Positions 7,454 to 38,198 of a stretch of DNA of 59,154 nucleotides are shown one piece after another. Below the pieces are notes generated by a model, which had not been told where the DNA came from, searched no databases, and worked only from the letters and a program-made list of their open reading frames with translations. The DNA lies in NCBI GenBank assembly GCA_045580105.1, contig JAZNNH010000002.1, positions 1-59,154 on the forward strand, given 5' to 3'. Position numbers and translations under genes: made by a program. The stretch is from Eubacteriales bacterium. GTDB taxonomy: Bacteria > Bacillota > Clostridia > Oscillospirales > SIG627. Position 1 is the first letter of the stretch. Every line of letters begins with the position of its first letter.

Positions 7454-8338
7454 TTGAAACCCGAAACCATCATTTCTTGCGAGAATATTTCGTTTCAGTA
7501 TGAAACCGATCGGCAGGAAATGCAAAAAGCGGTAAAGGATGTTTCCTTTACCATTGAAAAAGGTAGTTTCGTTGCCATTTTGGGACGAAACGGAAGCGGA
7601 AAAAGTACCCTGGCAAAACTGATGAACGGAATTTTGGTTCCTCAGTCCGGAACGGTTTTTGCTTTTGGTATGGATACCGCAAAGGAAGAAAATCTGCTTC
7701 CCATCCGCAAGCGTGTGGGAATGGTGTTTCAGAATCCCGATAACCAGTTGGTGTCCAATCTGGTGGAGGAGGACGTCGCGTTCGGACCGGAGAATCTGGG
7801 GATTCCCCCGAAAACGATCCGCGAACTGGTCGACCGTGCATTGAAAACGGTCGGAATGGAGCAGTTTGCCAAGCATTCTCCTCACAAGCTTTCCGGCGGT
7901 CAGAAACAGAGAATTGCAATTGCCGGCATCTTAGCGATGAATCCGGAGTGCATTCTCTTTGATGAATCCACCGCGATGCTCGATCCCCAAGGACGGCGTG
8001 AGATTATGGAAACCATTCTCCGTCTGAACCGAGAGGAAAATATGACGGTCGTTCTCATCACGCATCATATGGATGAAGCGGTGCAGGCAGACCGTGTGAT
8101 CGTGATGGAAGAGGGAAGAATTGTGCGCGACGGCACGCCGAAAGAAATTTTTTCCGACGTTGCGTTTTTGCACGCATCGGGTCTGGAAGCCCCTCAGGTG
8201 ACGGAACTGATCCACCTTTTGTCGGAGGATCCCGTTTTGTCAGAGCGCTTTGAGTTCCCGAAAGGGATTTTGGAAGAAAAGGAAGCATCTCAATTCATCT
8301 TGAGTTTGTTTGGAAAAGGAACGTATGGCAGAAATTAA
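7454..8338 (+). CDS. ecfA1: Energy-coupling factor transporter ATPase EcfA1
   Basis: Walker A GRNGSGKST, signature LSGGQKQR, Walker B ILFDEST. TTG start with SD AAAGGAG. Followed by ecfA2 and ecfT. Confidence 0.9.
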   Translation: MKPETIISCENISFQYETDRQEMQKAVKDVSFTIEKGSFVAILGRNGSGKSTLAKLMNGILVPQSGTVFAFGMDTAKEENLLPIRKRVGMVFQNPDNQLVSNLVEEDVAFGPENLGIPPKTIRELVDRALKTVGMEQFAKHSPHKLSGGQKQRIAIAGILAMNPECILFDESTAMLDPQGRREIMETILRLNREENMTVVLITHHMDEAVQADRVIVMEEGRIVRDGTPKEIFSDVAFLHASGLEAPQVTELIHLLSEDPVLSERFEFPKGILEEKEASQFILSLFGKGTYGRN

Positions 8339-9188
8339 ACTGGAGCATGTCTTTTACCGATACAGTCCGGATACCCCGTTTGAAAAAACGGCGCTCCGCG
8401 ACGTCGATCTGACCTTTACCCCCGGGGTGATTACCGGAGTGATCGGTCATACCGGTTCGGGAAAAAGCACGTTGGCGCAGCTGTTAAACGGCATCCTTCA
8501 GCCGACCCAAGGCCGTGTGCTTTTGGATGGGGAAGAGATCTTTGCCGATGCAAAATCGCGTCACAATGCTCGTTTTCGAGTGGGGCTTGTGTTTCAGTAC
8601 CCCGAATATCAGCTGTTTGAAGAAACCGTGTATCGCGATATTGCGTTCGGACCTCAGAATATGGGGAAAAGTCCCGAAGAGATCCGAAGCTTGGTGGAAG
8701 ACGCCGCCTATTTTACCGCGCTGGATCAGGATCTGATGGAAAAATCTCCCTTTGAACTGTCGGGCGGTCAAAAACGCAGAGTTGCCATTGCGGGAATCTT
8801 AGCAATGGATCCGGACGTGTTGGTTTTGGACGAACCCGCGGCAGGGCTTGACCCCAGCGGTAGAGCCGAGATTCTCGGACGATTGAAAACCTATCAGAGA
8901 GAAAAGAACAAAACCGTTCTTCTCATCTCCCACAGTATGGAAGACGTTGCCCGCTATGCGGATGAGATTCTGGTGCTCAGAGAGGGAAAGGTCTATCTGC
9001 ACGGTACGGTCGATCACGTGTTCTCCGATCCGCAGAAGCTGACCGAGGCACATCTTTCTTTGCCTCAGATTACAAGACTTGTCCTTGAATTGAGGAAAAA
9101 CGGAATTTCGGTGCCCGATTCGGTGCACACGGTCGAAGACGCGCTCTTCTTCCTCAAGCGCGAGCTGAAAGGGGGAGAAGGATGTTAA
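8325..9188 (+). CDS. ecfA2: Energy-coupling factor transporter ATPase EcfA2
   Basis: GHTGSGKST, LSGGQKRRVAIAG, VLVLDEPAAGLD. Start set at ATG 8325 (MAEIKLEHV). Confidence 0.9.
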   Translation: MAEIKLEHVFYRYSPDTPFEKTALRDVDLTFTPGVITGVIGHTGSGKSTLAQLLNGILQPTQGRVLLDGEEIFADAKSRHNARFRVGLVFQYPEYQLFEETVYRDIAFGPQNMGKSPEEIRSLVEDAAYFTALDQDLMEKSPFELSGGQKRRVAIAGILAMDPDVLVLDEPAAGLDPSGRAEILGRLKTYQREKNKTVLLISHSMEDVARYADEILVLREGKVYLHGTVDHVFSDPQKLTEAHLSLPQITRLVLELRKNGISVPDSVHTVEDALFFLKRELKGGEGC

Positions 9189-10009
9189 AAGACATTACCT
9201 TGGGACAGTATTTCCCCGGCAACAGCATCTTGCACCGCCTCGATCCCCGTATGAAGATTCTTTTGATGCTCTCGTACGTGATCTTGGTCTTTTTTGCAAA
9301 GAATCTGATGTCCTTTGCCTATCTTTCCGTTTTGGTTCTTTTGATGCTGTTTTTTTCCGGCATTTCGACGAAAGTGCTGTTAAAGGGCTTGAAGCCGGTC
9401 GTATTCATTTCGATTTTCACCGCCGTCATTAATTTGTTTTGGACCACGGGCGAAACGCCTTTGGTATCCATTGCCTTCATTCAGATCTATCCGGAGGGAA
9501 TTTGGCGTGCGCTCTTTATGGTCGTTCGTATCATCTCCCTTGTGGCGGGTACCAGCTTACTTTTGACCTATACCACAAGTCCGATGGATTTGACGGATGC
9601 CTTGGAGAGTTTGCTCTCTCCCTTGAAAAAACTTCGCGTTCCGGTCCACGAGTTTGCGATGATGATGTCTTTGGCACTTCGTTTCGTTCCGACCCTCATC
9701 GAAGAAACGGAAAAAATCATCAACGCCCAAAAAGCGCGTGGAGCCGATTTTGAATCGGGCCATCTCTTGCAGCGTGCAAAAGCGTTGGTTCCGATTCTCA
9801 TTCCGCTTTTCATTTCTGCCTTTTCCCGTGCGACGGATTTGGCGGTGGCAATGGAGTGCCGCTGCTACGTGGGCGGGCAGGGAAGAACCCGAATGCGCCA
9901 GATGCATCTTCGTTTGCGTGACGCGATGGTCTTTGCCCTCTTCCTCTTGCTCTTTTTCGGTATTGTGTTTGCGGCAAAAATCCCCCTGTTTTCAGGTGCA
10001 AGCTTATGA
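9182..10009 (+). CDS. ecfT: Energy-coupling factor transporter transmembrane protein EcfT
   Basis: Polytopic membrane protein with the conserved ARG motif region (INAQKARGADF). Position after ecfA1 and ecfA2. Confidence 0.88.
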   Translation: MLKDITLGQYFPGNSILHRLDPRMKILLMLSYVILVFFAKNLMSFAYLSVLVLLMLFFSGISTKVLLKGLKPVVFISIFTAVINLFWTTGETPLVSIAFIQIYPEGIWRALFMVVRIISLVAGTSLLLTYTTSPMDLTDALESLLSPLKKLRVPVHEFAMMMSLALRFVPTLIEETEKIINAQKARGADFESGHLLQRAKALVPILIPLFISAFSRATDLAVAMECRCYVGGQGRTRMRQMHLRLRDAMVFALFLLLFFGIVFAAKIPLFSGASL

Positions 10010-10752
10010 ATCGCGTCATTTTGACCTTGTGCTACGACGGCTCGGATTTTCACGGCTGGCAAATTCAAAATAATGCCGTTACGGTGCAGGGAGAATTAAA
10101 ACAGGCGTTTTTCAAGCTCTTTCAAGCGGACGTTCCGCTTGTCGGTTGCAGTCGAACCGATGCCGGTGTTCACGCCAAGCGCTTTGTTTGTCACGCGGAT
10201 CTTCCGACCTTGTTTCCCTGCGAGCGTTTGCCGCTGGCGCTCAACGCGCTTCTTCCGACAAGCATCGCCGTCTTATCCTGCATCCCCGCACCGGATGGGT
10301 TCCACGCCCGTTTTTCCTGTTTGGGGAAAACCTACCGTTATCGCATCCATAACGCACGCCTGCGCGATCCGTTTCAAGAAAAGAGAGCGTATTTCTTTCC
10401 CAGTCCTTTGAACGCGCAAAGGATGCACGAAGCGGCGCAGAGCTTTGTCGGAGAGCATGATTTTTCTGCTTTTATGGCAAGCGGCTGCGAGGTGAAGGAT
10501 ACCGTTCGCACCATTTCCTCGTGCTGCGTGACTCAAAGCGAAGAGAATATCGATTTTGTGGTTACCGGAAACGGCTTCCTTTATAATATGGTGCGCATTA
10601 TGGTCGGAACGCTCATTTCCCGGGAAATGGGAAAATTAGAACTTGAGATCCCCGAGATTATGGCATCGGGCGATCGAACCCTTGCGGGCATCACGGTGCC
10701 GCCGCAGGGCTTATATTTAGAAAACGTTTTTTATGACGGCTTTGCTGTTTAA
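10006..10752 (+). CDS. truA: tRNA pseudouridine(38-40) synthase TruA
   Basis: YDGSDFHGWQIQ...GCSRTDAGVHA carries the catalytic Asp motif. The ecfAAT-truA order is the canonical Firmicute synteny. Confidence 0.92.
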   Translation: MNRVILTLCYDGSDFHGWQIQNNAVTVQGELKQAFFKLFQADVPLVGCSRTDAGVHAKRFVCHADLPTLFPCERLPLALNALLPTSIAVLSCIPAPDGFHARFSCLGKTYRYRIHNARLRDPFQEKRAYFFPSPLNAQRMHEAAQSFVGEHDFSAFMASGCEVKDTVRTISSCCVTQSEENIDFVVTGNGFLYNMVRIMVGTLISREMGKLELEIPEIMASGDRTLAGITVPPQGLYLENVFYDGFAV

Positions 10753-10790
10753 AGTGTAATTTTCGGATCAAGAATAGATAGGAGATCAGA

Positions 10791-11972
10791 ATGAACCAAA
10801 TGGAAAAGGGTTCGGATACCCGTTCTGAAAAACAGGTCAAAAAGTTTAAACTCTATAAATTGATTTCCATTACCGTTTTGGTACTGTTTTTGCTTTGCGG
10901 TTTGATTCTGTTCAAAAACGACATTACCATTGAAAATCTGCGTTATATGATCAAATATCTGGACTTTTCCACCTCCGGTGCATTTGACGAAGAATTTCAA
11001 GTTCACTATAACGCAAATCCCGACAATCGCTTTTACGTTTTTCGAGGGGACCTTGCCATTGTGAATGAATCGGGGGTTACGCTCTATGACCGTCGCGGCA
11101 GCGCGGTGATGACGGATTCGTTCAGTATGACCTCTCCCGTTGGCGTGTGTGCAGAACGCTATCTTGCCATCTATGACCTCGGCGGTTATCAAGTGAGAAT
11201 TTACAATTCGTTCTCCCTACTGTTCGAAAAAAGCTTTGATTATATGGTGCAATCGGTTTCGGTTAACAAAGACGGTTCGTTTTGCGTTGTGACTTCGGAA
11301 AAGTCTTACCATTCCGCCGTTTTTGTCTACGACCGTGATTTTAGACAGGTTCAGCAATGGTTTTCTGCCGATAAATTTGCCGTTGACGCCCATCTTTCCG
11401 ACGACAATGTTTTGACCGTTTCGACCATCCGTGCACAGGACGGCGATTTGTATGGAGAACTCATCGCGTTCAAAATCGGCAAAAAAGATCCGCTTTATAC
11501 CTATCCCTATCGCGAAAATATGCCGCTTGCCCTCACATCGAAACGAAACCGCGCCGCTCTTATGACCGACGAGAGGATGTATCTTATCAAAGAGGGCGAA
11601 GAAAAAGCCAAGGTGATCTTTCCTAAGGAAAGCTTGGCGCAGATTCGAATGGGGGAAGAACTTCTTTGCGTGGTTCAGAACGAGCTTTCCATCGGCGTAA
11701 ATTTCCGTCTTCGCGTTTTTGATTGGGACGGCACAGAGCTTGCTTCGGAAAAGTTTTCCGTTCAGATTTTGGACGTGCAGATTTGGGAAGATACGGTATA
11801 TGTTCTGACTCACACAGGGCTTTTTGTGATTTCTCCCGGAGAAAAAACAAAAGTATATGAACTGGAAGGAGATTTTTTCCACTTAGGAATCCTTTCCAAG
11901 GACACCGTTGTTCTTTGCTCGGAAACCTCTGCTCAAATTCGATTACTTAATGAAAAAGGAGAAATCAAATGA
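10791..11972 (+). CDS. Membrane-anchored hypothetical protein, repeat/beta-propeller-like ectodomain (possibly DUF5711 family)
   Basis: A single N-terminal TM (LISITVLVLFLLCGLILF) is followed by about 340 aa of beta-rich sequence. SD AGGAG upstream. Its stop overlaps the cvpA start (ATGA). Confidence 0.55.
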   Translation: MNQMEKGSDTRSEKQVKKFKLYKLISITVLVLFLLCGLILFKNDITIENLRYMIKYLDFSTSGAFDEEFQVHYNANPDNRFYVFRGDLAIVNESGVTLYDRRGSAVMTDSFSMTSPVGVCAERYLAIYDLGGYQVRIYNSFSLLFEKSFDYMVQSVSVNKDGSFCVVTSEKSYHSAVFVYDRDFRQVQQWFSADKFAVDAHLSDDNVLTVSTIRAQDGDLYGELIAFKIGKKDPLYTYPYRENMPLALTSKRNRAALMTDERMYLIKEGEEKAKVIFPKESLAQIRMGEELLCVVQNELSIGVNFRLRVFDWDGTELASEKFSVQILDVQIWEDTVYVLTHTGLFVISPGEKTKVYELEGDFFHLGILSKDTVVLCSETSAQIRLLNEKGEIK

Positions 11973-12670
11973 ATATCTTTTGCGACCTTTTGATCCTTGC
12001 CTTTTTTCTTCTTTGTGTTTTTCTCGGTTATAAAAGGGGCTTTATCAAAACCTTCTTCGGCTTTTTCGGTAAGGTGATTGCCTTTGTGCTGACTGCGATC
12101 ACGGCAAAGCCGCTTGCCGGATACGTAAGTGGTCACATTTTCTATCCCTTTCTCAAAGAAAAGTTTCTTGCCGATCTGACCGAAAAGACGGGACAGACGG
12201 TCGCCTCGCTTGATTTTTCCGATTTACCTGAGATTTGTCAGGAGATTTTGGCGCGCTTCGGAACCGATACCGCATCCCTTTCCGAGCATCTTGCAAAGAT
12301 CACGGTTGAGGGCGGCGAAAGCGTTGCGGAAACAGCATCTCTTTGGGTGGTCAAGCCCTTTGCGGACTCCCTTTCCTATTCGGTTTCTTTTTTGGCATTG
12401 TTTTTGCTGTTTTCGATTGCGATTCGTATACTAACCAAGGTTTTGAACTTGGTTTCCAAAGTTCCCGGTTTGAATTTTTCCAATCGCCTTTTGGGCATTG
12501 CGGCAGGTGTTTTGGAAGGTCTGTTGCTATCGGTTTTGATTTCGTTTGTTCTTTCTTTGGCAGAGCCCGCCATTCAAGGAAATGAAAATGAATGGATCCG
12601 CAGTTTTTCTTTGGAACAAACCCATCTTGTGAAATTGTTTGCAAAGTTTAATGTTCTTGGTATTTTGTGA
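11969..12670 (+). CDS. cvpA: CvpA family membrane protein
   Basis: N-terminus DLLILAFFLLCVFLGYKRGFIKTFFGFFGKVIAFVL is typical of CvpA. About 4 TM segments. Confidence 0.8.
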   Translation: MNIFCDLLILAFFLLCVFLGYKRGFIKTFFGFFGKVIAFVLTAITAKPLAGYVSGHIFYPFLKEKFLADLTEKTGQTVASLDFSDLPEICQEILARFGTDTASLSEHLAKITVEGGESVAETASLWVVKPFADSLSYSVSFLALFLLFSIAIRILTKVLNLVSKVPGLNFSNRLLGIAAGVLEGLLLSVLISFVLSLAEPAIQGNENEWIRSFSLEQTHLVKLFAKFNVLGIL

Positions 12671-12681
12671 AAGGAACGCAC

Positions 12682-13290
12682 ATGAAAACGCTTCGTTTTA
12701 GAACCAGCCATATTCCCAATTATATCTCTCTGTTTCGCATCGTTTTGGTGCCGATTTACGGCTTTCTCTTTTTCGGCGCATTCAAAACGCCCGAGGGGGT
12801 AGACAATCTCTCAGCCGCCGGCTTTGTCTTTATTCTCGCAGGCATCAGCGACGCGATTGACGGGTATCTTGCCAGAAAAAACAATTGGATCACCGACGTC
12901 GGTAAACTGTTAGACCCGCTTGCCGACAAGCTCTTGGAAGTGGTGGTAACGGTTTGCCTTGCCATCCGATTCGGCGGACCGTTTCAGATTCTTTCCACCA
13001 TTATCATCACAAAGGAAATCGTGATGATCGTCGGTGCGTATCTGATTATGTCCAAAAGTCACGTGTACGTTTCTTCGGTTTGGTGCGGAAAGCTGGCAAC
13101 CATTGTGTGGTACGTTTTGATTTGCGTGGTTCATTTTTTCCAAGACGTAGCGCGGATTGACGCTCTTTGCAACGGGCTTTGCATCATCTTGATTTTAGTT
13201 ATGATTATGGCATTCGTGATGTACGTGTTCAATTATGCCTCTCAGATTCAGAGCACAAAAGATGCCATTATAAAGGAAAAGAAGAAATAA
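12682..13290 (+). CDS. pgsA: CDP-diacylglycerol--glycerol-3-phosphate 3-phosphatidyltransferase (CDP-alcohol phosphatidyltransferase family)
   Basis: DAIDGYLARKNNWITDVGKLLDPLADKL matches the D-G-x2-A-R-x8-G-x3-D-x3-D motif. ATG 12682 has SD AAAGGAA. An in-frame GTG at 12667 that overlaps the cvpA stop is an alternative start. Confidence 0.85.
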   Translation: MKTLRFRTSHIPNYISLFRIVLVPIYGFLFFGAFKTPEGVDNLSAAGFVFILAGISDAIDGYLARKNNWITDVGKLLDPLADKLLEVVVTVCLAIRFGGPFQILSTIIITKEIVMIVGAYLIMSKSHVYVSSVWCGKLATIVWYVLICVVHFFQDVARIDALCNGLCIILILVMIMAFVMYVFNYASQIQSTKDAIIKEKKK

Positions 13291-13319
13291 TCTGTAACGT
13301 AAGAAAGTCGGGTTAAACC

Positions 13320-15596
13320 ATGAAGTTATGTTCTCGCTGTAAACAGCGTCCTGCTGTGATATACATTAATAAGATCCAAGATAACAAGGTCACCTCAGAG
13401 GGACTTTGTATCCGCTGTGCCAAGGAAATGAAGATTATGCCCCTTGCCGAGCAAATGGAAAAAATGGGCATTCGGGATGAAGACGTTGAACTTTTGGAAC
13501 AGCAAATGGGTCAAATGATGGAAGGGTTGGCAGATTCGGATGCCACCGGCGCACCTGCCATGGACCTTTCCTCTCTGTTCGGTTCGGTGTTGCCACCGGT
13601 TCCTTTAGAAAAAGAAGAACAAAAAGAAGAGAAAAAAGAAAAAGGCGATAAGAAGAGCAAAAAGTACGGGAAAATGCTGGATGGATATTGCCTGAATTTA
13701 ACCGCCAAAGCTTCTCGCGGAGAGCTGGATCGCGTCATCGGCAGAGAAATGGAAATGGACCGCGTGGTTCAGATTCTTTGCCGCCGTCAGAAAAACAACC
13801 CTTGCCTCATCGGTGAGCCGGGCGTTGGCAAAACCGCCATTGCCGAGCTTTTGGCGCAATCCATTGTCGATCGAAAAGTTCCCGTGCGCTTGATGGACAA
13901 GGAAGTCTTTCTCTTGGATTTGACGGCTCTTGTTGCAGGAACGCATTTTCGCGGCCAATTTGAAAGCCGCGTCAAGGCGCTTGTGGAAGAAGTCAAAAAG
14001 CAGGGCAACATCATTCTTGTAATCGATGAGATTCACACCATCGTCGGGGCAGGGGATTCGGAAGGCGGTATGAGCTGCGCCAATATTTTAAAGCCGGCAC
14101 TCTCGCGCGGCGAAATCCAGATCATCGGTGCGACCACCCTTGCCGAATACCGCAAATACATTGAAAAAGATCAGGCACTGGAGCGCCGCTTCCAACCGGT
14201 TATGGTAGAAGAGCCGAGTGTTCAGAAAACCATTCAGATTTTAAAAGGCGTCAAGAATCATTACGAAACCTTCCACGGCTTGCGCGTTCCTGAGTCGATT
14301 TTGCGCACAACCGTGGTTCTTTCCGAACGCTATATTACCGACCGCTTCTTGCCCGACAAAGCAATCGATATTTTGGATGAAGCTTGCGCGAAAAAGGCCA
14401 TTTCCAGCGACGTAATCAACCGAATTGACGCACTGGCAAAGGAACTGAATCAAATGCGCGAGGAGCGCGAATTTTTGGAGGCCGAAAGCAACCCCGATGA
14501 TTCCACCTATGCCCGTCTTGCGGAAATCAAGGTGATGCTGCTTCGCAAGCAGGAAGAGTTTGATGCTCTTTCCCGTCAGCGCGACGGAATTTTTCTCGAT
14601 ATTGAGGATATTGCCAAGGTCATCGAATCTTGGACGGGTATTCCTGCCGCCAGCATCTCGGAAAACGAATTTGACAAAATTGCAGGGCTGAAAGAATCCC
14701 TTTCGCGCCATATTATCGGGCAGGATCAGGCGGTCAATGCCGTTTGCCGCGCCATCAAGCGAAACCGCGCAGGAATCAGCGTCAAGCCCAAGCCCGCCAG
14801 CTTCATTTTTGCCGGACCTACGGGTGTGGGCAAAACGGAACTTGTAAAGCTGCTTGCCTCGCATTTATTCGATTCTCCCGAATCCTTGATTCGCTTGGAT
14901 ATGTCAGAGTTTATGGAAAAACACGCGGTATCGCGCATCATCGGCTCTCCTCCCGGCTACGTCGGATACGACGATGCCGGACAGTTAACGGAAAAGATCC
15001 GACGCAAACCCTATTCCGTGATCTTATTTGACGAGATCGAAAAAGCGCATCCGGACGTTTTGAACATCCTGTTGCAGGTGCTTGACGACGGAAAGATTTG
15101 CGATGCCCACGGAAAAGAAATCAATTTTGAAAATACCGTGATTGTGATGACCACCAATGCCGGAAGTCAGGTTCGCTCCGGCGTTACGGGCTTTGGACAC
15201 AGTCTTGACGAGGCGCAGGATTCTCGCACGGAGAGAGGACTTGAGGCCTTTTTGCGTCCGGAATTTTTAAATCGTGTGGACGAGATCATCACTTTCCGCA
15301 AGCTCTCTCGCGAAGATTTTCTCAAAATTGCCGAATTGCGCCTTGCTGAATTGAAGGCGGCAATGGAAGAAAAGGGACTTGTTCTGACGTATGACCAAGC
15401 GGTTCTGGAAACGGTTGCGAAAGAAAGCTTCAGCGAAAAATACGGAGCCCGTCATATGGCACGCTTTTTGCAAACTCACGTGGAAGATCCCATTGCAGAC
15501 AGGATCGTTTCCGATCGTGACAGAACCATCCGCGCGGTTCGTCTTTTCGTGTCGGATGGAGTCATCAAAACAGAACTTAATAAAGAGGAAGTATGA
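13320..15596 (+). CDS. ClpC-like double-AAA+ Clp ATPase with an N-terminal ClpX-type C4 zinc ribbon replacing the Clp_N domain
   Basis: CxxC-x22-CxxC at aa 4-33. Lys/Glu-rich linker. D1 has GEPGVGKT and ILVIDEIH; D2 has GPTGVGKT and [11 protein letters not shown]. Short middle domain. A GVTGFG loop sits at the position of the ClpP-docking tripeptide. Confidence 0.85.
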
Positions 15597-32474: not shown

Positions 32475-33851
32475 ATGGAATATCGCTTAGAGTCCGACTC
32501 CATCGGAACCAAACAAGTACCTGCCAATGCGTACTGGGGCGTACAGTCCCTTCGCGGTGCAGAGAACTTTAGAATCACCGGACAGTCTTTGAGAAAAGAA
32601 TTTATTGAATCTTTGGCTGAAATCAAAAAAGCTTGTGCGATTTGTAACCACAAGGTTGGCGAAATGGATGAAACAATTAAAGATGCCATTTGCCGTGCCT
32701 GTGACGAGATCGTGGAAGGAAAACTGCACGATCAGTTCATTTGTGATCCAATTCAGGGTGGCGCCGGCACGACGGCAAACATGAACGCCAACGAGGTCAT
32801 CGCAAACCGCGCAATCGAAATTTTGGGCGGCGTGAAGGGTGATTATTCGATCGTTCATCCCAACGACCACGTCAACCGTTCTCAGTCCACCAACGACGTC
32901 ATTCCGACTGCGGCAAAAATGACCACGATCAAACTTTTGAAAAAGGTTATGAAGCAGGTCGAAAGACTCGAAGAGGCACTCAAAGACAAAGAAAAGGAAT
33001 TCCATCACATCATCAAAATGGGTCGTACTCAGATGCAGGATGCTGTGCCGATCCGTTTGGGTTCTGAATTCGGTGCTTACAGCCGTGCCATCCATCGTGA
33101 CCTTGTCCGCTTGGAACGCGCAATGTTTGAAATGTACGGCATCAACCTCGGTGGTACTGCCGTTGGTACTGCTTTGAACGCCAAGCCCGAATACGTCGAT
33201 TCTTTGGCTCCCGTTTTGAGCGAAATTTCCGGTCTTCCCCTGGTAAAGGCAGACGACTTGGTTGACGGAACGCAGAACCTTGATTCTTTTGCATACGTTT
33301 CTTCTGCTCTGAAGACCTGCGCCATCTCTTGCTCCAAAATGTCCAACGACTTCCGTTTGATGTCCTCCGGCCCTCGTTGCGGCTTTGAAGAAATCAACCT
33401 TCCTCCCATGCAGAACGGTTCCTCCATCATGCCCGGCAAGGTAAATCCGGTTATCCCCGAAGTGATGAGCCAGGCCGCTTTCTGTATCATCGGTAATGAT
33501 ATGTCTATCACGATGGCAGCCGAAGCAGGTCAGCTCGAGCTCAACTACGCTGAGCCCGTTTTGTATCACAAACTCTTCGAGTCGCTTGTTGCTCTGGAAG
33601 GTGCGATCGATACCTTTGTGGAACGCTGTGTTGTCGGCATCACCGCCAACGAAGACCGTTGCGAAGAACTCGTGGAATCTTCCGTCGGTGTCATCACCGC
33701 AATTTGCCCCAAGGTAGGTTATAAAAAATCTGCTACGGTTGCAAAAGAAGCGATCAAGACCGGCAAAAGCGTCAGAGAAGTGCTTCGCGACTCCGGCATT
33801 CTTTCCGAGCAGGAAATCGAATCCATCCTTGATCCTAAAACAATGGTATGA
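32475..33851 (+). CDS. aspA: Aspartate ammonia-lyase (class II fumarase/aspartase family)
   Basis: YRLESDSIGTKQVPANAYWGVQSLRGAENF and the signature GSSIMPGKVNPVIPE. The VNPV-IPE variant is aspartase-like rather than FumC-like. Confidence 0.8.
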   Translation: MEYRLESDSIGTKQVPANAYWGVQSLRGAENFRITGQSLRKEFIESLAEIKKACAICNHKVGEMDETIKDAICRACDEIVEGKLHDQFICDPIQGGAGTTANMNANEVIANRAIEILGGVKGDYSIVHPNDHVNRSQSTNDVIPTAAKMTTIKLLKKVMKQVERLEEALKDKEKEFHHIIKMGRTQMQDAVPIRLGSEFGAYSRAIHRDLVRLERAMFEMYGINLGGTAVGTALNAKPEYVDSLAPVLSEISGLPLVKADDLVDGTQNLDSFAYVSSALKTCAISCSKMSNDFRLMSSGPRCGFEEINLPPMQNGSSIMPGKVNPVIPEVMSQAAFCIIGNDMSITMAAEAGQLELNYAEPVLYHKLFESLVALEGAIDTFVERCVVGITANEDRCEELVESSVGVITAICPKVGYKKSATVAKEAIKTGKSVREVLRDSGILSEQEIESILDPKTMV

Positions 33852-33853
33852 TC

Positions 33854-33887
33854 AAAAATTCCCCCGAATTTCGGGGGAATTTTTTTA
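33854..33887. terminator. Bidirectional rho-independent terminator between aspA and the convergent decarboxylase gene
   Basis: aaaaattcccccga-att-tcgggggaattttttt. Confidence 0.8.
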
Positions 33888-33915
33888 TAAAAAAAGAAAA
33901 GCAAGTCAATTTGAC

Positions 33916-35259
33916 TTACTTTTCTTTGACGACCAAAACGTCGCGAATTCCGTAATACGAAAACGCATTGATTGCCTCATCGTCAAGCTTTTCCCCACAA
34001 ATGGCAATGGGAACGGCAGGGGGACAGGACACGGCAGGGTCTGCCAAAATGCGGCCTGCGGCACGTTCGATCGGGATACGCTCCGTCGCACAGAGCATAG
34101 CGCGGCGAATGGAAAGCGCGGGAGTTGCTTTTTTGCATTTGGGAGGAAACACAAGAATCGGTTCTCTTTTTTCGAGGAATGCAAAAAAGGTTTTGATGCG
34201 ATGCAAAACCTCGGTTCCGTTTTGCGGGGTGAACATCATCACGAGAAAATCGGGATCGGAAAATTCACATTCCATTCCGTTTTCTCGCAAGATGCGAGCC
34301 AAATCTGTTCCGGTATAGCCGGCGGGCTTTGTCACGATGCAAATTTTCAGCGGCTCGTCGCCGATGGTCTGAAAGCCCATGTTCCGAATCTCATCTCGCA
34401 GGGCTTGCACCTTCTCGGAATAGGAGAGAAGAGCTGCTGGAAAATCGGCGGAAAGATATGCGTTGCAAGCGTCTAAGGATTGCAGGATCAAATACGAGGG
34501 ACTGGTGGATGCAAAGAGGGAAAGGCAAGATTTTGCTTCCGATAAAAAGAACTCGTCCGCATCTTTTCCGATATGCAAATACGCTCCCCCCGTCAAAACG
34601 GGCAGGGTCTTGTGCGCAGAGTCGCAACAAAGATCGGCACCCAGAGCGATCGGATGGCAAGAGCTCGGATAAAAGTTTAAATACGCCCCATGTGCATTGT
34701 CAACCAAAAGGATGGCACCGTTTTCGTGACAAAATCGGGAAAGCGAGGCAATATCGGAAACGTTGCCCAAATAGTCGGGACTGGTAATATAAACTGCGGT
34801 AGGGGCGCATTCTGCATCCCGAAAGAGCGGCCTTAGGTCTTCTTTCGTAACCTTCCCGGAAAGAAGAGAAGCGTTGCCGAAATCAATCCAAATCGGGGAC
34901 AGGTCCAGCAGGGCACAGGTGGTCAGAAAGGACTTGTGTGCCGCACGGCCGGCGGCAATAACGGCTTTCTTATTGTTTTTTTCTGCGTGCTTGACCGCTA
35001 AGGTCAGCATCGCGCGGATCGCAAGTGTGGACCCTTCGGTAGAATAAAGCGTCTGACGAGAGCCGAAAATCTCTGTTGCGTTTTTTTGGCTTTCTGCCAA
35101 AATTCCGTCTTCTTGATAGAGTACGTCCGCACCGCAGATTTCGGTTATGTCAAGCCCCTCGATTCCCAGCGGACCGACTCCCTTGTGACCGGGCATATGC
35201 AACCGCGCGTTTCCGCTTTTTTGATAGCGCGATACGAAATCGCAAATCGGGGTGTTCAT
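33916..35259 (-). CDS. Orn/Lys/Arg decarboxylase family PLP-dependent enzyme (YaaO/SpeA-like)
   Basis: MNTPICDFVSRYQKSGNARLHMPGHKG... with the PLP-lysine motif DSAHKTLPVLTGGA. Start ATG 35257-35259 lies 1 nt after the stop of the upstream maturase gene. Confidence 0.8.
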   Translation of the reverse strand: MNTPICDFVSRYQKSGNARLHMPGHKGVGPLGIEGLDITEICGADVLYQEDGILAESQKNATEIFGSRQTLYSTEGSTLAIRAMLTLAVKHAEKNNKKAVIAAGRAAHKSFLTTCALLDLSPIWIDFGNASLLSGKVTKEDLRPLFRDAECAPTAVYITSPDYLGNVSDIASLSRFCHENGAILLVDNAHGAYLNFYPSSCHPIALGADLCCDSAHKTLPVLTGGAYLHIGKDADEFFLSEAKSCLSLFASTSPSYLILQSLDACNAYLSADFPAALLSYSEKVQALRDEIRNMGFQTIGDEPLKICIVTKPAGYTGTDLARILRENGMECEFSDPDFLVMMFTPQNGTEVLHRIKTFFAFLEKREPILVFPPKCKKATPALSIRRAMLCATERIPIERAAGRILADPAVSCPPAVPIAICGEKLDDEAINAFSYYGIRDVLVVKEK

Positions 35260-35260
35260 A

Positions 35261-36640
35261 TTATGCTTCGAGCGCCTTTGCCGCTTCCAGCATAATGGCG
35301 CATTCCATACGCTTTTTGAACAGCTTACAGCCGTATTCATATACGCCGTTCACGCTGCCCGTTGCGTGGTAGGAATTGGCAGCACAACCGCCGGAGCAGT
35401 AGAGCTTTGCCCAGCAGTCTTGGCATTCGGGCTTGGCATATACGTTGCAAGCCATAAATTGATCGCGAACGGCTTCATTTGTCACACCGTCCCATATGTT
35501 ACCGAGGAGGAATTGCTCGTCTCCGACAAACTGATGACAAGGATACAGATCGCCCCAGGGGGTCACAGCCATATATTCCGTTCCGGAACCACAGCCGGAA
35601 ACGCGCTTATAGATGCAAGGACCGCCCTTTAAATCAATCATATAGTGATAGAAGGTAAATGGCTTTCCGCTCTTTCTTTTCTCAAGCATAAGCTCTGCCA
35701 AGCGTTCGTATTGATCCAGTACGATCGGAAGGTCTTTGTCGGTCAAAGCGCAGGGATCATCGGGAGCACAAACCACGGGCTCCATGCTCAGTTCCGTAAA
35801 GCCCAAACGGAGCATTTCTTTGATATCGTTCAAAAAATCGGGGTTTCGATGGGTGAACGTGCCGCGCATATAGTAATTCTTGTGACCGCGCGCCTCCACC
35901 AATTCTTGAAACTTGGGAACGATTTTCTCCCAGCTTCCCACGTCGTTCATATCCACGCGGAAGTGATCGTGGATTTCTTTTCGACCGTCCAAGCTCAGAA
36001 CCACGTTGCTCATTTCACGATTGGCAAAGTCAATCACGTCTTTATCAATGAGTACACCATTAGTCGTCAGAGTGAAGCGGAAGTTCTTTCCGGTTTCTTT
36101 TTCGCGCGCTCTGGCATAGCCGACAAGCGCGCGGATCATATCAAAGTTCATCAGCGGTTCGCCGCCGAAAAAGTCAACCTCTAAATTGGTTCTTCCTTTG
36201 GAATTCTCAATCAGAAAATCCAGCGCTCGTTTTCCCGTTTCCAAACTCATCAGAGCGCGTTTTCCCTGATAGTTTCCTTGACTTGCAAAGCAGTAAGCGC
36301 AGTTTAAATTGCAGGTGTGGGCAACGTGCAGGCAAAGCGCTTTGACCACGCCGCTTGTCTTCTGTTTCAAATCCTGCGCCATCGGAGAGAACGTGTCCGG
36401 TGTGAACAGCTTTCCGTCTTCCTTGAGCTGTGTGACCTGCTCGTAACACTCCTCCAACTCCGAAAGCGAAACTTCGGGGTCGTTGCCGTATTTTGCAAGA
36501 AGTTTTTTCAATAGCGCATCTTTTTCGGTGGACTCATACTCCGAAATCAAGTCGTATGCTACTTCGTCCACAACGTGAACCGAACCGGAAAAAATATCCA
36601 GTACAATGTTCAGTCCGCCAAGCTGATAGCAATGTATCAT
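35261..36640 (-). CDS. scfB: Radical SAM/SPASM thioether cross-link-forming SCIFF peptide maturase
   Basis: CNLNCAYCF (CxxxCxxC) and a C-terminal SPASM cysteine cluster (PECQDCWAKLYCSGGCAANSY). The N-terminus MIHCYQLGGLNIVLDIFSGSVHVVD is typical of SCIFF maturases. The SCIFF precursor gene lies immediately upstream. Confidence 0.88.
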   Translation of the reverse strand: MIHCYQLGGLNIVLDIFSGSVHVVDEVAYDLISEYESTEKDALLKKLLAKYGNDPEVSLSELEECYEQVTQLKEDGKLFTPDTFSPMAQDLKQKTSGVVKALCLHVAHTCNLNCAYCFASQGNYQGKRALMSLETGKRALDFLIENSKGRTNLEVDFFGGEPLMNFDMIRALVGYARAREKETGKNFRFTLTTNGVLIDKDVIDFANREMSNVVLSLDGRKEIHDHFRVDMNDVGSWEKIVPKFQELVEARGHKNYYMRGTFTHRNPDFLNDIKEMLRLGFTELSMEPVVCAPDDPCALTDKDLPIVLDQYERLAELMLEKRKSGKPFTFYHYMIDLKGGPCIYKRVSGCGSGTEYMAVTPWGDLYPCHQFVGDEQFLLGNIWDGVTNEAVRDQFMACNVYAKPECQDCWAKLYCSGGCAANSYHATGSVNGVYEYGCKLFKKRMECAIMLEAAKALEA

Positions 36641-36658
36641 AAAATCTCCTTTTCACCG

Positions 36659-36688
36659 AAAAAAATGCCGCCATAGGCGGCATTTTTT
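36659..36688 (-). terminator. Intrinsic terminator/attenuator between the SCIFF precursor and its maturase
   Basis: On the minus strand: AAAAAATGCCGCC-TAT-GGCGGCATTTTTTT. Followed by the maturase SD AAGGAG. Confidence 0.75.
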
Positions 36689-36698
36689 AATTGGATTT

Positions 36699-36848
36699 TT
36701 ATTTGCTTTCTTTGTTTTCACACTGCTGATTGGCAATACCGCAACTGGTTTTGCAAGCAGATTGGCAAGAAGTCTGGCATTCGCCGCAGCCGCCTTTTTT
36801 TGCGCTTTCACAAAGATTTTTGGTTTCGAGGGTTAAAATGTGTTTCAT
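36699..36848 (-). CDS. scfA: Six-cysteine ranthipeptide precursor SCIFF (49 aa; below the ORF-track length cut-off)
   Basis: Manual translation: MKHILTLETKNLCESAKKGGCGECQTSCQSACKTSCGIANQQCENKESK. The core GGCGECQTSCQSACKTSC is the SCIFF signature. SD AGGAG lies 7 nt upstream of the ATG (36846-36848). Confidence 0.9.
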   Translation of the reverse strand: MKHILTLETKNLCESAKKGGCGECQTSCQSACKTSCGIANQQCENKESK

Positions 36849-36878
36849 GATTCGACTCCTTCGCAAAATGATTGATTT

Positions 36879-36907
36879 ATTATAGCATGTTTTTTTCCAT
36901 AAGTCAA
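36879..36907 (-). promoter_or_regulatory. Near-consensus sigma-70 promoter for scfA
   Basis: On the minus strand: TTGACT (36902-36907), 17-nt spacer, TATAAT (36879-36884). Confidence 0.6.
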
Positions 36908-37090
36908 TCTAACAAAGAGAATTTTCGCCCATTTTCTCGGATAATCTTCAAAGTGGAGCTTTGTTTTGTGAATTTTTTACGTCGTCGGTTTTATTTTCTT
37001 GAAAAACTGCCCACGGTAAAAGTCCTTTTGAACGATCGAAAAGAGGATGGGATCGCTGCTTGATTTTTCTCTTTCGATTGGGAAAAAGGT

Positions 37091-37119
37091 TTGACAAAAC
37101 AGAGCTTTTCGGGTAAAAT
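37091..37119 (+). promoter_or_regulatory. Sigma-70-type promoter for the MarR gene
   Basis: TTGACA (37091-37096), 17-nt spacer, TAAAAT (37114-37119). Confidence 0.55.
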
Positions 37120-37168
37120 ATCAATGTTGACTGTGCAACGAAAATCCGCGTTTTTCGGAGGTTCTTTT

Positions 37169-37630
37169 ATGCTGTTTCGTTTCTTTCGTTTTTCAATGTG
37201 CTTATCTTCCATTTCTCACTGTATTCAAAAGATTTGCAGTAAAGAAATGAAAAAAATCGGATTGAAAGGTTCTTACGTACCGTATCTTGCCACGTTAGAC
37301 CGCTTTCAGGAAGAGGGGGTAACGGCGGCAAAGCTTTGTGAACTGTGTGACCGCGACAAAGCGGCGGTTTCGCGCGCCCTTTCCGAATTGGAGGAAAAGG
37401 GTCTTTTGGTACGCGAAGAGGAAAACGGAAGAGTTTATCGCATTCGTTTGTTTTTAACCGAAAAGGGAAAAAGGGCGGCGTCTTTCATCAAAGAAAAGGT
37501 GCAGTTTGCGGTCGAGCAAGCGGTAAAGGGGATTCCCGAGGAACAGCGAATCATTTTTGTGGAATCATTTCAGCATATTTCAAAAAATCTTCAGGATCTG
37601 ACGAAAGAGGAGAATCTCGGCGACCTGTAA
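37169..37630 (+). CDS. MarR family transcriptional regulator
   Basis: Winged-helix region VTAAKLCELCDRDKAAVSRALSELEEKGLLVREEE. Start at ATG 37169 with SD GGAGG (37157-37161). Confidence 0.8.
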   Translation: MLFRFFRFSMCLSSISHCIQKICSKEMKKIGLKGSYVPYLATLDRFQEEGVTAAKLCELCDRDKAAVSRALSELEEKGLLVREEENGRVYRIRLFLTEKGKRAASFIKEKVQFAVEQAVKGIPEEQRIIFVESFQHISKNLQDLTKEENLGDL

Positions 37631-37631
37631 T

Positions 37632-38198
37632 TTACGCGTTTTTTTGAATCAGAATTGCCATCGGAGGGCAACCGACACGATTGATAAAGTGGGTTTGCAG
37701 AACGCTGTACTTGCTTTGATCGACGCTCTCTAAAAAGGAAAGAATCCGATCGCGCTCTTCGGTCCCGTTTTCCTTTCCGTAGTAGAGGCAAAGTGTCATC
37801 ACCCCGCCCGGCTTGAGAAGTGTGAGCGCTTTTTGAATGGCAACAAGCGACGTGTCTGCCCGAGAGAATTTGTTGTGATCACCGCCGGGTAACCAGCCGA
37901 AATTAAACATAATGCCCCCAACGCTTTCTTTCGTAGTAAAATCATCGATTTTGCTGTGGCAGGAAAGAATCACGCGGGCATTTTTTATATGGTTTTCCGC
38001 AAGAAGCTGCCTTGTGCTTTCCACCGCCGCCTCTTGAATGTCAAGGGCGATGACCTCGCCCTTTTCTCCGACAAGCTTTGCCAGAAAGAGCGTATCGCGG
38101 CCGCGACCTGCGGTTGCATCGATGCAACGATCTCCGGGCTTGATCTGTTCTGCCATAAATTTGTGGGAAAGCCCGAGTGCGTTAAAAGGATAATTCAT
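37632..38198 (-). CDS. mnmM: YtqB/MnmM family class I SAM-dependent methyltransferase (tRNA mnm5s2U34 methyltransferase in B. subtilis)
   Basis: GDRCIDATAGRGRDTLFLAKLVGEKGEVIALDIQEAAV...FNFGWLPGGDH...CPPMAILIQK aligns along its full length with recalled B. subtilis YtqB. Confidence 0.75.
   Translation of the reverse strand: MNYPFNALGLSHKFMAEQIKPGDRCIDATAGRGRDTLFLAKLVGEKGEVIALDIQEAAVESTRQLLAENHIKNARVILSCHSKIDDFTTKESVGGIMFNFGWLPGGDHNKFSRADTSLVAIQKALTLLKPGGVMTLCLYYGKENGTEERDRILSFLESVDQSKYSVLQTHFINRVGCPPMAILIQKNA

Follow-up and report, generated by a model that had tools for sequence, protein, structure and literature searches.

We analysed a 59,154-nt stretch of DNA from Eubacteriales bacterium (GenBank assembly GCA_045580105.1, contig JAZNNH010000002.1, positions 1 to 59,154), here called the window, which carries a locus for a SCIFF ranthipeptide. 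SCIFF peptides are nearly universal in Clostridia, and their enzymology has partly been worked out; to our knowledge, their physiological role has been open since 2011. The locus encodes the precursor (ScfA), its radical SAM/SPASM maturase (ScfB) and, directly behind scfB, a pyridoxal phosphate (PLP) enzyme that phylogeny places with YaaO, a widespread enzyme of Firmicutes. The pair of SCIFF precursor and maturase is already catalogued, and we found no paper linking SCIFF to YaaO or to a decarboxylase. The three genes appear to form one operon with a hairpin between scfA and scfB, and the YaaO-type enzyme may share in the process that this subtype of SCIFF serves.

The SCIFF locus and its regulatory elements

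All coordinates refer to the whole window, and the layout was read on the minus strand over positions 33700-37600 (Table 1). The ScfA peptide matched TIGR03973 with 79.4 bits (cut-off 50) and PF13165 with 80.9 bits (cut-off 27), and ScfB matched TIGR03974 with 739.7 bits (cut-off 425) over positions 1-450 of the 451 in the model. The two TIGR profiles were those that an earlier note on this DNA had proposed for checking its assignment of the locus to SCIFF, and both supported it. Against the 'not_ScfB' exception model NF040492, which describes an ScfB-related orphan family, ScfB scored 551.9 bits, under the cut-off of 855. It carries the radical SAM motif CNLNCAYC (CxxxCxxC; PF04055, 58 bits), and its SPASM match (PF13186, 20.4 bits) was slightly under the cut-off of 21.5. 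The same note had described a 49-aa open reading frame (ORF) with the six-cysteine signature of SCIFF. The peptide is indeed encoded there, directly 5' of scfB, and its cysteines number seven (positions 13, 21, 24, 28, 32, 36 and 43), namely the six of the core C-x2-C-x3-C-x3-C-x3-C-x6-C (Cys21, 24, 28, 32, 36 and 43) and Cys13 in the leader. It also contains Thr34 and Gly37.

The locus resembles CteA/CteB (thermocellin, Acetivibrio thermocellus) and Tte1186a/Tte1186 (Caldanaerobacter subterraneus) in the common precursor family with the core GGCGECQTSCQSACKTSC...NQxCE, in the common maturase family TIGR03974 with the radical SAM CxxxCxxC motif and SPASM domain, and in the position of the precursor gene directly 5' of the maturase gene. 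It differs from these systems in several respects. ScfA of the window has Gly37, whereas CteA and Tte1186a have Thr37, the acceptor of the Cys32-Thr37 bond reported in vitro (PMC8326336); its leader has the additional Cys13; and its maturase belongs to a separate clade on a long stem, with a YaaO-type PLP gene coupled to it.

The predicted promoter of scfA matched the consensus at 11 of 12 positions in addition to the TG of the extended -10 element, and ranked first in the region in a consensus scan. Between scfA and scfB lie 58 nt, from which a hairpin is predicted with the stem arms AAAAAAUGCCGCC and GGCGGCAUUUUUU at 36688-36660 and a U7 tract at 36665-36659. Folding gave -19 kcal/mol (z = -2.9 relative to shuffled sequences), and on the transcribed strand the stem-loop is followed at once by the U-tract, as in an intrinsic terminator. 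Only 18 nt, including the Shine-Dalgarno sequence, separate the U-tract from the ATG of scfB, which leaves no space for a promoter, and the consensus scan predicted no minus-strand promoter-like site between 36640 and 36879. Transcription of scfB and the PLP gene would therefore need read-through past the hairpin. The stop codon of scfB (TAA at 35263-35261) is followed by a single T and then by the ATG of the PLP gene at 35259 (TAA-T-ATG); the longest ORF of this gene opens at 35340, and homologues favour the ATG at 35259.

The same elements were sought at homologous loci. A promoter agreeing with the consensus at 10 or more of 12 positions was found at the same distance 5' of scfA in 121 of 137 distinct loci, compared with 8 of 137 shuffled sequences, and 89 of these 121 also had the extended -10 TG. 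Between scfA and scfB, 58 of 68 loci had a hairpin that folds at -7 kcal/mol or better and is followed by a U-rich tail, where 3.8 were expected; most of the loci counted as negative likewise show a GC hairpin by eye, and across the 68 loci the stem sequences vary by lineage with the structure kept. The spacing from the scfB stop to the PLP start fell between -4 and +4 nt in 98 of 102 distinct loci (-4, that is ATGA, in 27; -1 in 30; 0 to +4 in 41). These counts indicate that the predicted promoter, hairpin and stop/start junction are more than chance.

The promoter, the Shine-Dalgarno sequence, the hairpin with U7 and the 1-nt junction described in the earlier note were thus all present, and the terminator it placed between precursor and maturase corresponds to a 13-bp hairpin of terminator type, through which scfB must be read. 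Its view that the PLP gene is co-transcribed with scfB and probably translationally coupled to it agrees with the TAA-T-ATG junction and with the spacing kept in relatives. Calling the hairpin an attenuator overstates the case, since nothing suggests regulated antitermination. An Rfam scan of 33700-37300 returned no family above its gathering score, and therefore no riboswitch or leader; the sub-threshold matches all fell on terminator hairpins.

We propose that the hairpin between scfA and scfB acts as a leaky terminator or a stability hairpin that determines how much precursor is made relative to enzyme. A stem-loop or leaky terminator stands between precursor and modification genes in nisA-nisB and sboA-albA, although we found no usable published lantibiotic example. 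The SCIFF locus is like these systems in placing the precursor first and in its hairpin with U-tract, and would share with them the dependence of the enzymes on read-through and an excess of precursor mRNA. No paper describing a hairpin element for SCIFF came to our notice, though no search was aimed at one.

Table 1. Genes and predicted elements at the SCIFF locus and beside it (window coordinates)
Feature	Position	Strand	Description
scfA promoter (predicted)	36879..36907	-	sigma-70-type, TTGACT-17 nt-TGcTATAAT, extended -10 TG
scfA Shine-Dalgarno AGGAG	36856..36860	-	7 nt 5' of the ATG at 36848; direct reading
scfA	36699..36848	-	49-aa SCIFF ranthipeptide precursor
Intrinsic-terminator-type hairpin (predicted)	36659..36688	-	13-bp stem, UAU loop, U7
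scfB Shine-Dalgarno AGGAG	36646..36650	-	5 nt 5' of the ATG, 8 nt past the U-tract
scfB	35261..36640	-	radical SAM/SPASM thioether-forming SCIFF maturase, 459 aa
YaaO-family PLP gene	33916..35259	-	447 aa, ATG 1 nt past the scfB stop
Two operon-end terminator hairpins (predicted)	33860..33927 (33927-33893 + 33879-33860)	both	terminator prediction
aspA, aspartate ammonia-lyase gene	32475-33851	+	NF008909, 670 bits; convergent to the SCIFF operon
MarR gene	37091-37630, likely ATG 37169	+	divergent from scfA
tRNA methyltransferase MnmM gene	37632-38198	-	NF053511, 204 bits; convergent with the MarR gene

A YaaO-clade enzyme behind the maturase

The PLP enzyme matched PF01276 (OKR_DC_1) with 104 bits and PF03711 with 29 bits, and against NCBIfam it reached no decarboxylase equivalog. 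Its best solved relative is PDB 2x3l, an S. aureus protein of 446 aa labelled 'Orn/Lys/Arg decarboxylase family protein', which it matches along the entire length with an E value of 2e-29, enough to settle the fold. The PLP-binding motifs HxPGHK, DxAHG (Asp187) and SxHK (Ser214, His216, Lys217) were kept in at least 93% of 71 sequences, with the PLP-binding residues retained in every group, and on account of these motifs the enzyme looks active.

Two related enzymes of Firmicutes share this family. YaaO and the arginine decarboxylase SpeA are paralogues, and the gene for YaaO is found directly upstream of tmk throughout Firmicutes (PMC8503589). According to the same study, spermidine requires SpeA but not YaaO, deletion of yaaO leaves polyamines unchanged, and S. 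aureus, a polyamine auxotroph, retains yaaO (PMC8503589). The enzymatic activity of B. subtilis YaaO was not determined in that work (PMC8503589), so that no activity can be transferred from it to the window enzyme. In B. subtilis, yaaO mutants showed lowered 5-aminopentanol modification of Lys32 of elongation factor P (EF-P); the gene is not strictly required for this modification and probably has a role in substrate supply (PMC5885033).

To place the window enzyme, we used a tree of 72 rows (LG+C20) rooted on a SpeA-like paralogue; this and the other trees were quick searches. The SpeA-like paralogues (L064 and L067) fell outside a branch of support 100. Of 20 homologues fetched that are unlinked to SCIFF, 18 fell in the YaaO clade, and most of these lie directly beside a conserved gene set that Pfam identifies as thymidylate kinase (tmk), the cyclic-di-AMP receptor DarA, the DNA polymerase III delta' subunit (HolB) and PSP1/RicT. 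PLP genes that follow scfB, as in the window, formed one clade with support 98, nested among YaaO genes of the same order that are linked to holB (supports 100, 99 and 96). The predicted enzyme is therefore a member of the YaaO clade and not SpeA. With SpeA, an arginine decarboxylase of the ancestral aspartate aminotransferase (AAT) fold in Firmicutes, it shares PF01276 and PF03711, a similar length and the fold type, but it belongs to a different paralogue clade. With B. subtilis YaaO and the orthologues upstream of tmk, including the S. aureus homologue of PDB 2x3l, it shares the ancestral AAT-fold decarboxylase-like clade and the PLP motifs.

Its position is different. The YaaO orthologues lie in the tmk-darA-holB-ricT neighbourhood, whereas the window gene begins 1 nt past the scfB stop; a place directly upstream of tmk, by which YaaO is recognised in PMC8503589, is not the one it occupies. 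The genome of the window, a metagenome-assembled one (MAG), totals 1.38 Mb over 89 contigs, is 81% complete and has a single OKR_DC_1 gene. Its darA-holB-ricT genes lie on another contig (C19), behind an ABC-transporter gene and without a PLP gene, and its tmk is on contig C45. The absence of a PLP gene beside darA-holB-ricT indicates that the YaaO-type gene has left its usual place, and we regard the window gene as a relocated member of the YaaO family, by phylogeny and not by synteny. The C19 segment (7810-14991) reads darA-holB-(450-aa gene)-ricT, lacks yaaO and tmk, and is preceded at darA by the gene for a 991-aa ABC transporter; tmk stands alone on its own contig (C45:14740-15393).

The description of this protein in the earlier note as an Orn/Lys/Arg-type PLP decarboxylase thus holds for the Pfam family and finds no support as to the identity of a polyamine-type decarboxylase. 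In annotation, the names lysine, arginine and ornithine decarboxylase should be avoided for this gene, and polyamine synthesis in these genomes should not be inferred from it.

A second arrangement was found in relatives, in which a PLP gene stands directly upstream of scfA. These upstream-type genes formed a separate clade (support 97) together with holB/tmk-linked genes of other families, and unlinked YaaO genes of other Clostridia fell between the two clades. Forcing all SCIFF-linked PLP genes into one clade, a grouping named after both arrangements had been seen, cost 176.8 log-likelihood units (approximately unbiased, AU, test p = 2e-10). The test rejects a single origin of the SCIFF-linked PLP enzymes. 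The simplest history would begin with a YaaO gene joining this SCIFF subtype; the host order's YaaO would later have taken its place, on the opposite side of the operon. Under either history, the trees indicate that two YaaO lineages ended beside SCIFF. As a source of the upstream arrangement we also considered insertion of SCIFF into the yaaO-tmk cluster, and rejected it, as no tmk, darA, holB or ricT was found within 5 kb. At one upstream-type locus (L047:4668-4925, genome G254), a tandem pair of scfA genes lies between the PLP gene and scfB.

Linkage of the PLP gene to a Gly37 subtype of SCIFF

Linkage was examined in an order sample of 401 genomes and a class sample of 200 genomes. The samples are not phylogenetically independent, all carriers seen were MAGs, and the linkage counts are lower bounds among the matches listed. 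In the order sample, 287 genomes carried scfB and 283 a PLP homologue: 271 had both, 16 only scfB, 12 only the PLP homologue and 102 neither. The PLP gene lay directly 3' of scfB on the same strand in at least 87 of the 401 genomes, with 42-61% identity to the window enzyme, which answers in the affirmative the question raised in the earlier note of whether the decarboxylase follows scfB in relatives. Among 20 sampled genomes whose scfB is 58-69% identical to that of the window, the gene for a PLP homologue directly preceded scfA, on the same strand, in 13, and was downstream in one; these upstream homologues are distant, with 28-31% identity to the window enzyme. In the class sample, 125 genomes had both genes listed, and the PLP gene was downstream in at least 21, upstream in at least 11, within 5 kb in at least one and unlinked in the remaining 92.

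Among 80 named species representatives with the PLP protein, scfB was directly upstream of its gene in 77; two contigs were too short, and one locus had an inserted gene. The closest relatives are gut and rumen MAGs with the labels Oscillospiraceae, Acutalibacteraceae, Ruminococcus sp., Faecousia, Vescimonas, Pilosibacter and Christensenellaceae. The scfA-scfB-PLP trio is kept together in about 100 species with differing flanks: the largest cluster of shared neighbours comprised 4 of 74 downstream and 3 of 64 upstream flanks, and the comparison of these flanks revealed no further conserved member of the operon on either side. Retention of the arrangement in 77 of 80 species-level relatives with both flanks scrambled supports the suggestion, made in the earlier note, that the coupling is functional context and not chance. 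In one species representative, about 920 nt, probably one gene, separate scfB from the PLP gene (L152:2077-3001).

Among the 102 order genomes without scfB and the PLP gene are genus-mates (G006 and G012) with a completeness of 88-94%. As both genes are missing even from these, the whole module appears to be dispensable and to be lost as a unit. YnbB, encoded by a gene required for EF-P modification in B. subtilis, was found in 40 of 41 relatives, including those without scfB and the PLP gene. The PLP gene thus co-varies with scfB and not with ynbB.

In the ScfB tree, every PLP-linked maturase, whether of the upstream or the downstream type, fell in one clade with support 100 and a stem of 1.16 substitutions per site. 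Within it, maturases of the upstream type branch at the base and enclose those of the downstream type. The precursors of this clade were examined in an alignment of the window peptide with 68 relatives, in which position 37 follows the numbering of model SCIFF peptides. Unlinked ScfA peptides had the sequence CKTSC-T-V(A/G)NQ (11 of 11 in the order sample, 15 of 20 in the class sample); all ScfA peptides of the linked maturase clade had CKTSC-G-(V/I)ANQ, or Ser37 in a basal group. At the 80 named loci, 70 ScfA peptides could be recovered, and all had Gly37. The KTSC motif, including Thr34, was kept in all ScfA sequences examined. Because five class-sample genomes combine Gly37 with an unlinked PLP gene, Gly37 is a marker of the maturase clade rather than of strict PLP adjacency.

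According to a review, a single Cys32-Thr37 bond forms in vitro in both Tte1186a and CteA, whereas co-expression in E. coli gave Cys32 bonded to Thr34 (C-gamma), a discrepancy that it leaves standing (PMC8326336); Thr34 and Thr37 as acceptors are a property of the model peptides and no definition of the family (PMC8326336). The alignment indicates that Thr37 is dispensable in a whole clade of ScfA. In a Gly37 peptide, a Cys32-Thr34 link would stay possible and a Cys32-Thr37 link would be excluded. The presence of Thr34 in all sequences examined and the clade-wide change from Thr37 to Gly thus bear on the discrepancy between the two reported bonds.

In a basal linked subclade (L037, L041, L044 and L045, from genomes G178, G206, G277 and G339), Ser32 replaces Cys32, the reported thioether donor, and position 37 is also Ser. 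Two of these four members have an additional cysteine near the C-terminus (CEQCK), by which a total of six cysteines is kept.

Interpretation of the operon and its neighbours

From these observations we favour, with a probability of roughly 0.55, a three-gene operon of promoter, scfA, leaky terminator hairpin, scfB and yaaO-like gene, in which the YaaO-type enzyme shares the process of this SCIFF subtype. A strong promoter of the constitutive type would drive scfA, and most transcripts would stop at the hairpin, which would also protect their 3' end and leave much more precursor mRNA than enzyme mRNA. The fraction that reads through would give ScfB and then, by termination-reinitiation, the PLP enzyme in a fixed ratio. 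ScfB would bind the leader of ScfA and form thioether links from cysteine to carbon, and the YaaO-type enzyme would serve the same physiological process, outside the polyamine pathway. As PLP chemistry needs a free alpha-amino group, its substrate would most likely be a small compound with an amine, such as a free amino acid, or a released fragment, and not the peptide backbone. Such an operon would tie together two orphans, SCIFF and a widespread PLP enzyme of Firmicutes, in many uncultured gut and rumen species, and two YaaO lineages beside SCIFF offer a testable lead to the roles of both systems.

Several observations weigh against a shared process. Linkage reaches about a quarter of the class sample, with the PLP gene elsewhere in 92 of the 125 genomes that have both genes listed. 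Most of the co-occurrence of scfB and the PLP gene follows from physical linkage, by which one deletion removes both, and genes may share an operon for no other reason than common regulation. Where the PLP gene stands upstream, scfA retains a strong promoter of its own, and the PLP gene may there be transcribed separately. The PLP gene occupies a third place in some genomes of the Gly37 clade; in three of the five Gly37 genomes with an unlinked PLP gene, which were checked, it lies neither at SCIFF nor at holB. Compared with unlinked YaaO, the two linked PLP clades have no residues in common save at one Lys/Arg position, and the grouping submitted to the AU test was, as stated, chosen after both arrangements were known. 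B. subtilis has YaaO without SCIFF, and YaaO therefore does not need SCIFF in general.

The alternative that survives best, although we think it clearly less probable than a shared process, is that the PLP enzyme keeps the ancestral role of YaaO, a supply of precursor that raises the 5-aminopentanol modification of the EF-P lysine, and only borrows the read-through transcription of SCIFF, with no biochemical connection to the peptide. The influence of YaaO on EF-P modification in B. subtilis (PMC5885033), the presence of YaaO without SCIFF in Bacilli and the 92 unlinked genes of the class sample all agree with it; the window genome, moreover, has an EF-P with the KPGKG lysine and a YnbB homologue, so that the EF-P pathway may exist there. 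Borrowed transcription would account less readily for two separate YaaO lineages adjoining SCIFF, for a trio left intact while its flanks are scrambled, for a tight stop/start junction in 98 of 102 loci, and for loss of the PLP gene with scfB while ynbB is retained.

A stricter form of the shared-process reading makes the PLP enzyme a dedicated partner of the Gly37-type SCIFF subfamily, its substrate being the peptide after modification by ScfB, a fragment released from that peptide with the alpha-amino group free, or a compound joined to it. We hold this form to be doubtful. If true, it would be a new kind of tailoring step for peptides made by ribosomes and modified after translation (RiPPs). 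In addition, it would disclose what reaction YaaO catalyses, a long-standing question about an enzyme that in Bacillus affects a different post-translational modification, the one on EF-P.

The earlier note had pointed to polyamine or amine metabolism and to the divergent MarR gene as functional context. A decarboxylase of basic amino acids with a polyamine or biogenic amine as its product, at a locus regulated by MarR, would fit the Pfam assignment to the Orn/Lys/Arg decarboxylase family, the single OKR_DC_1 copy in an 81%-complete genome and the divergent MarR gene, whose likely ATG at 37169 gives the 320-bp spacer already described; a MarR gene 40% identical to it also stands 3' of scfB in two genomes of one other genus. 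We nevertheless find this improbable. The protein is nested in the YaaO clade, with the SpeA-like L064 and L067 outside the branch of support 100, and no NCBIfam decarboxylase equivalog was reached; deletion of yaaO leaves polyamines unchanged, and the auxotroph S. aureus keeps the gene (PMC8503589). MarR was beside the SCIFF locus in none of the 77 named relatives and in none of the genus-mates, and the spacer (36840-37175) contains no inverted repeat or operator palindrome. Least probable of all is that the hairpin is a complete terminator, so that scfA would stand as a unit by itself and a promoter of their own would serve scfB and the PLP gene: a strong hairpin of -19 kcal/mol with U7 would suit such a role, but the 18 nt before the scfB ATG and the stretch 36640-36879 offer no predicted promoter, one inside scfA would still face the hairpin, and the same layout recurs in 58 of 68 loci.

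Neither the MarR gene nor the MnmM gene is conserved beside SCIFF in relatives, and we infer that MarR and aspA are chance neighbours. The MarR gene has its own promoter-like site, TTGACA-17-TAAAAT, at 37091-37119. At the other end of the operon, the paired hairpins at 33860-33927 are flanked by A- and T-tracts on each side and, as bidirectional terminators, end both the SCIFF operon and the convergent aspA. The 40%-identical MarR gene of genomes G169 and G387 (L046:6681-7100 and L051) lies directly 3' of scfB, in the usual place of the PLP gene, and adjacency of MarR and SCIFF is rare, occurring at 3 of about 170 loci.

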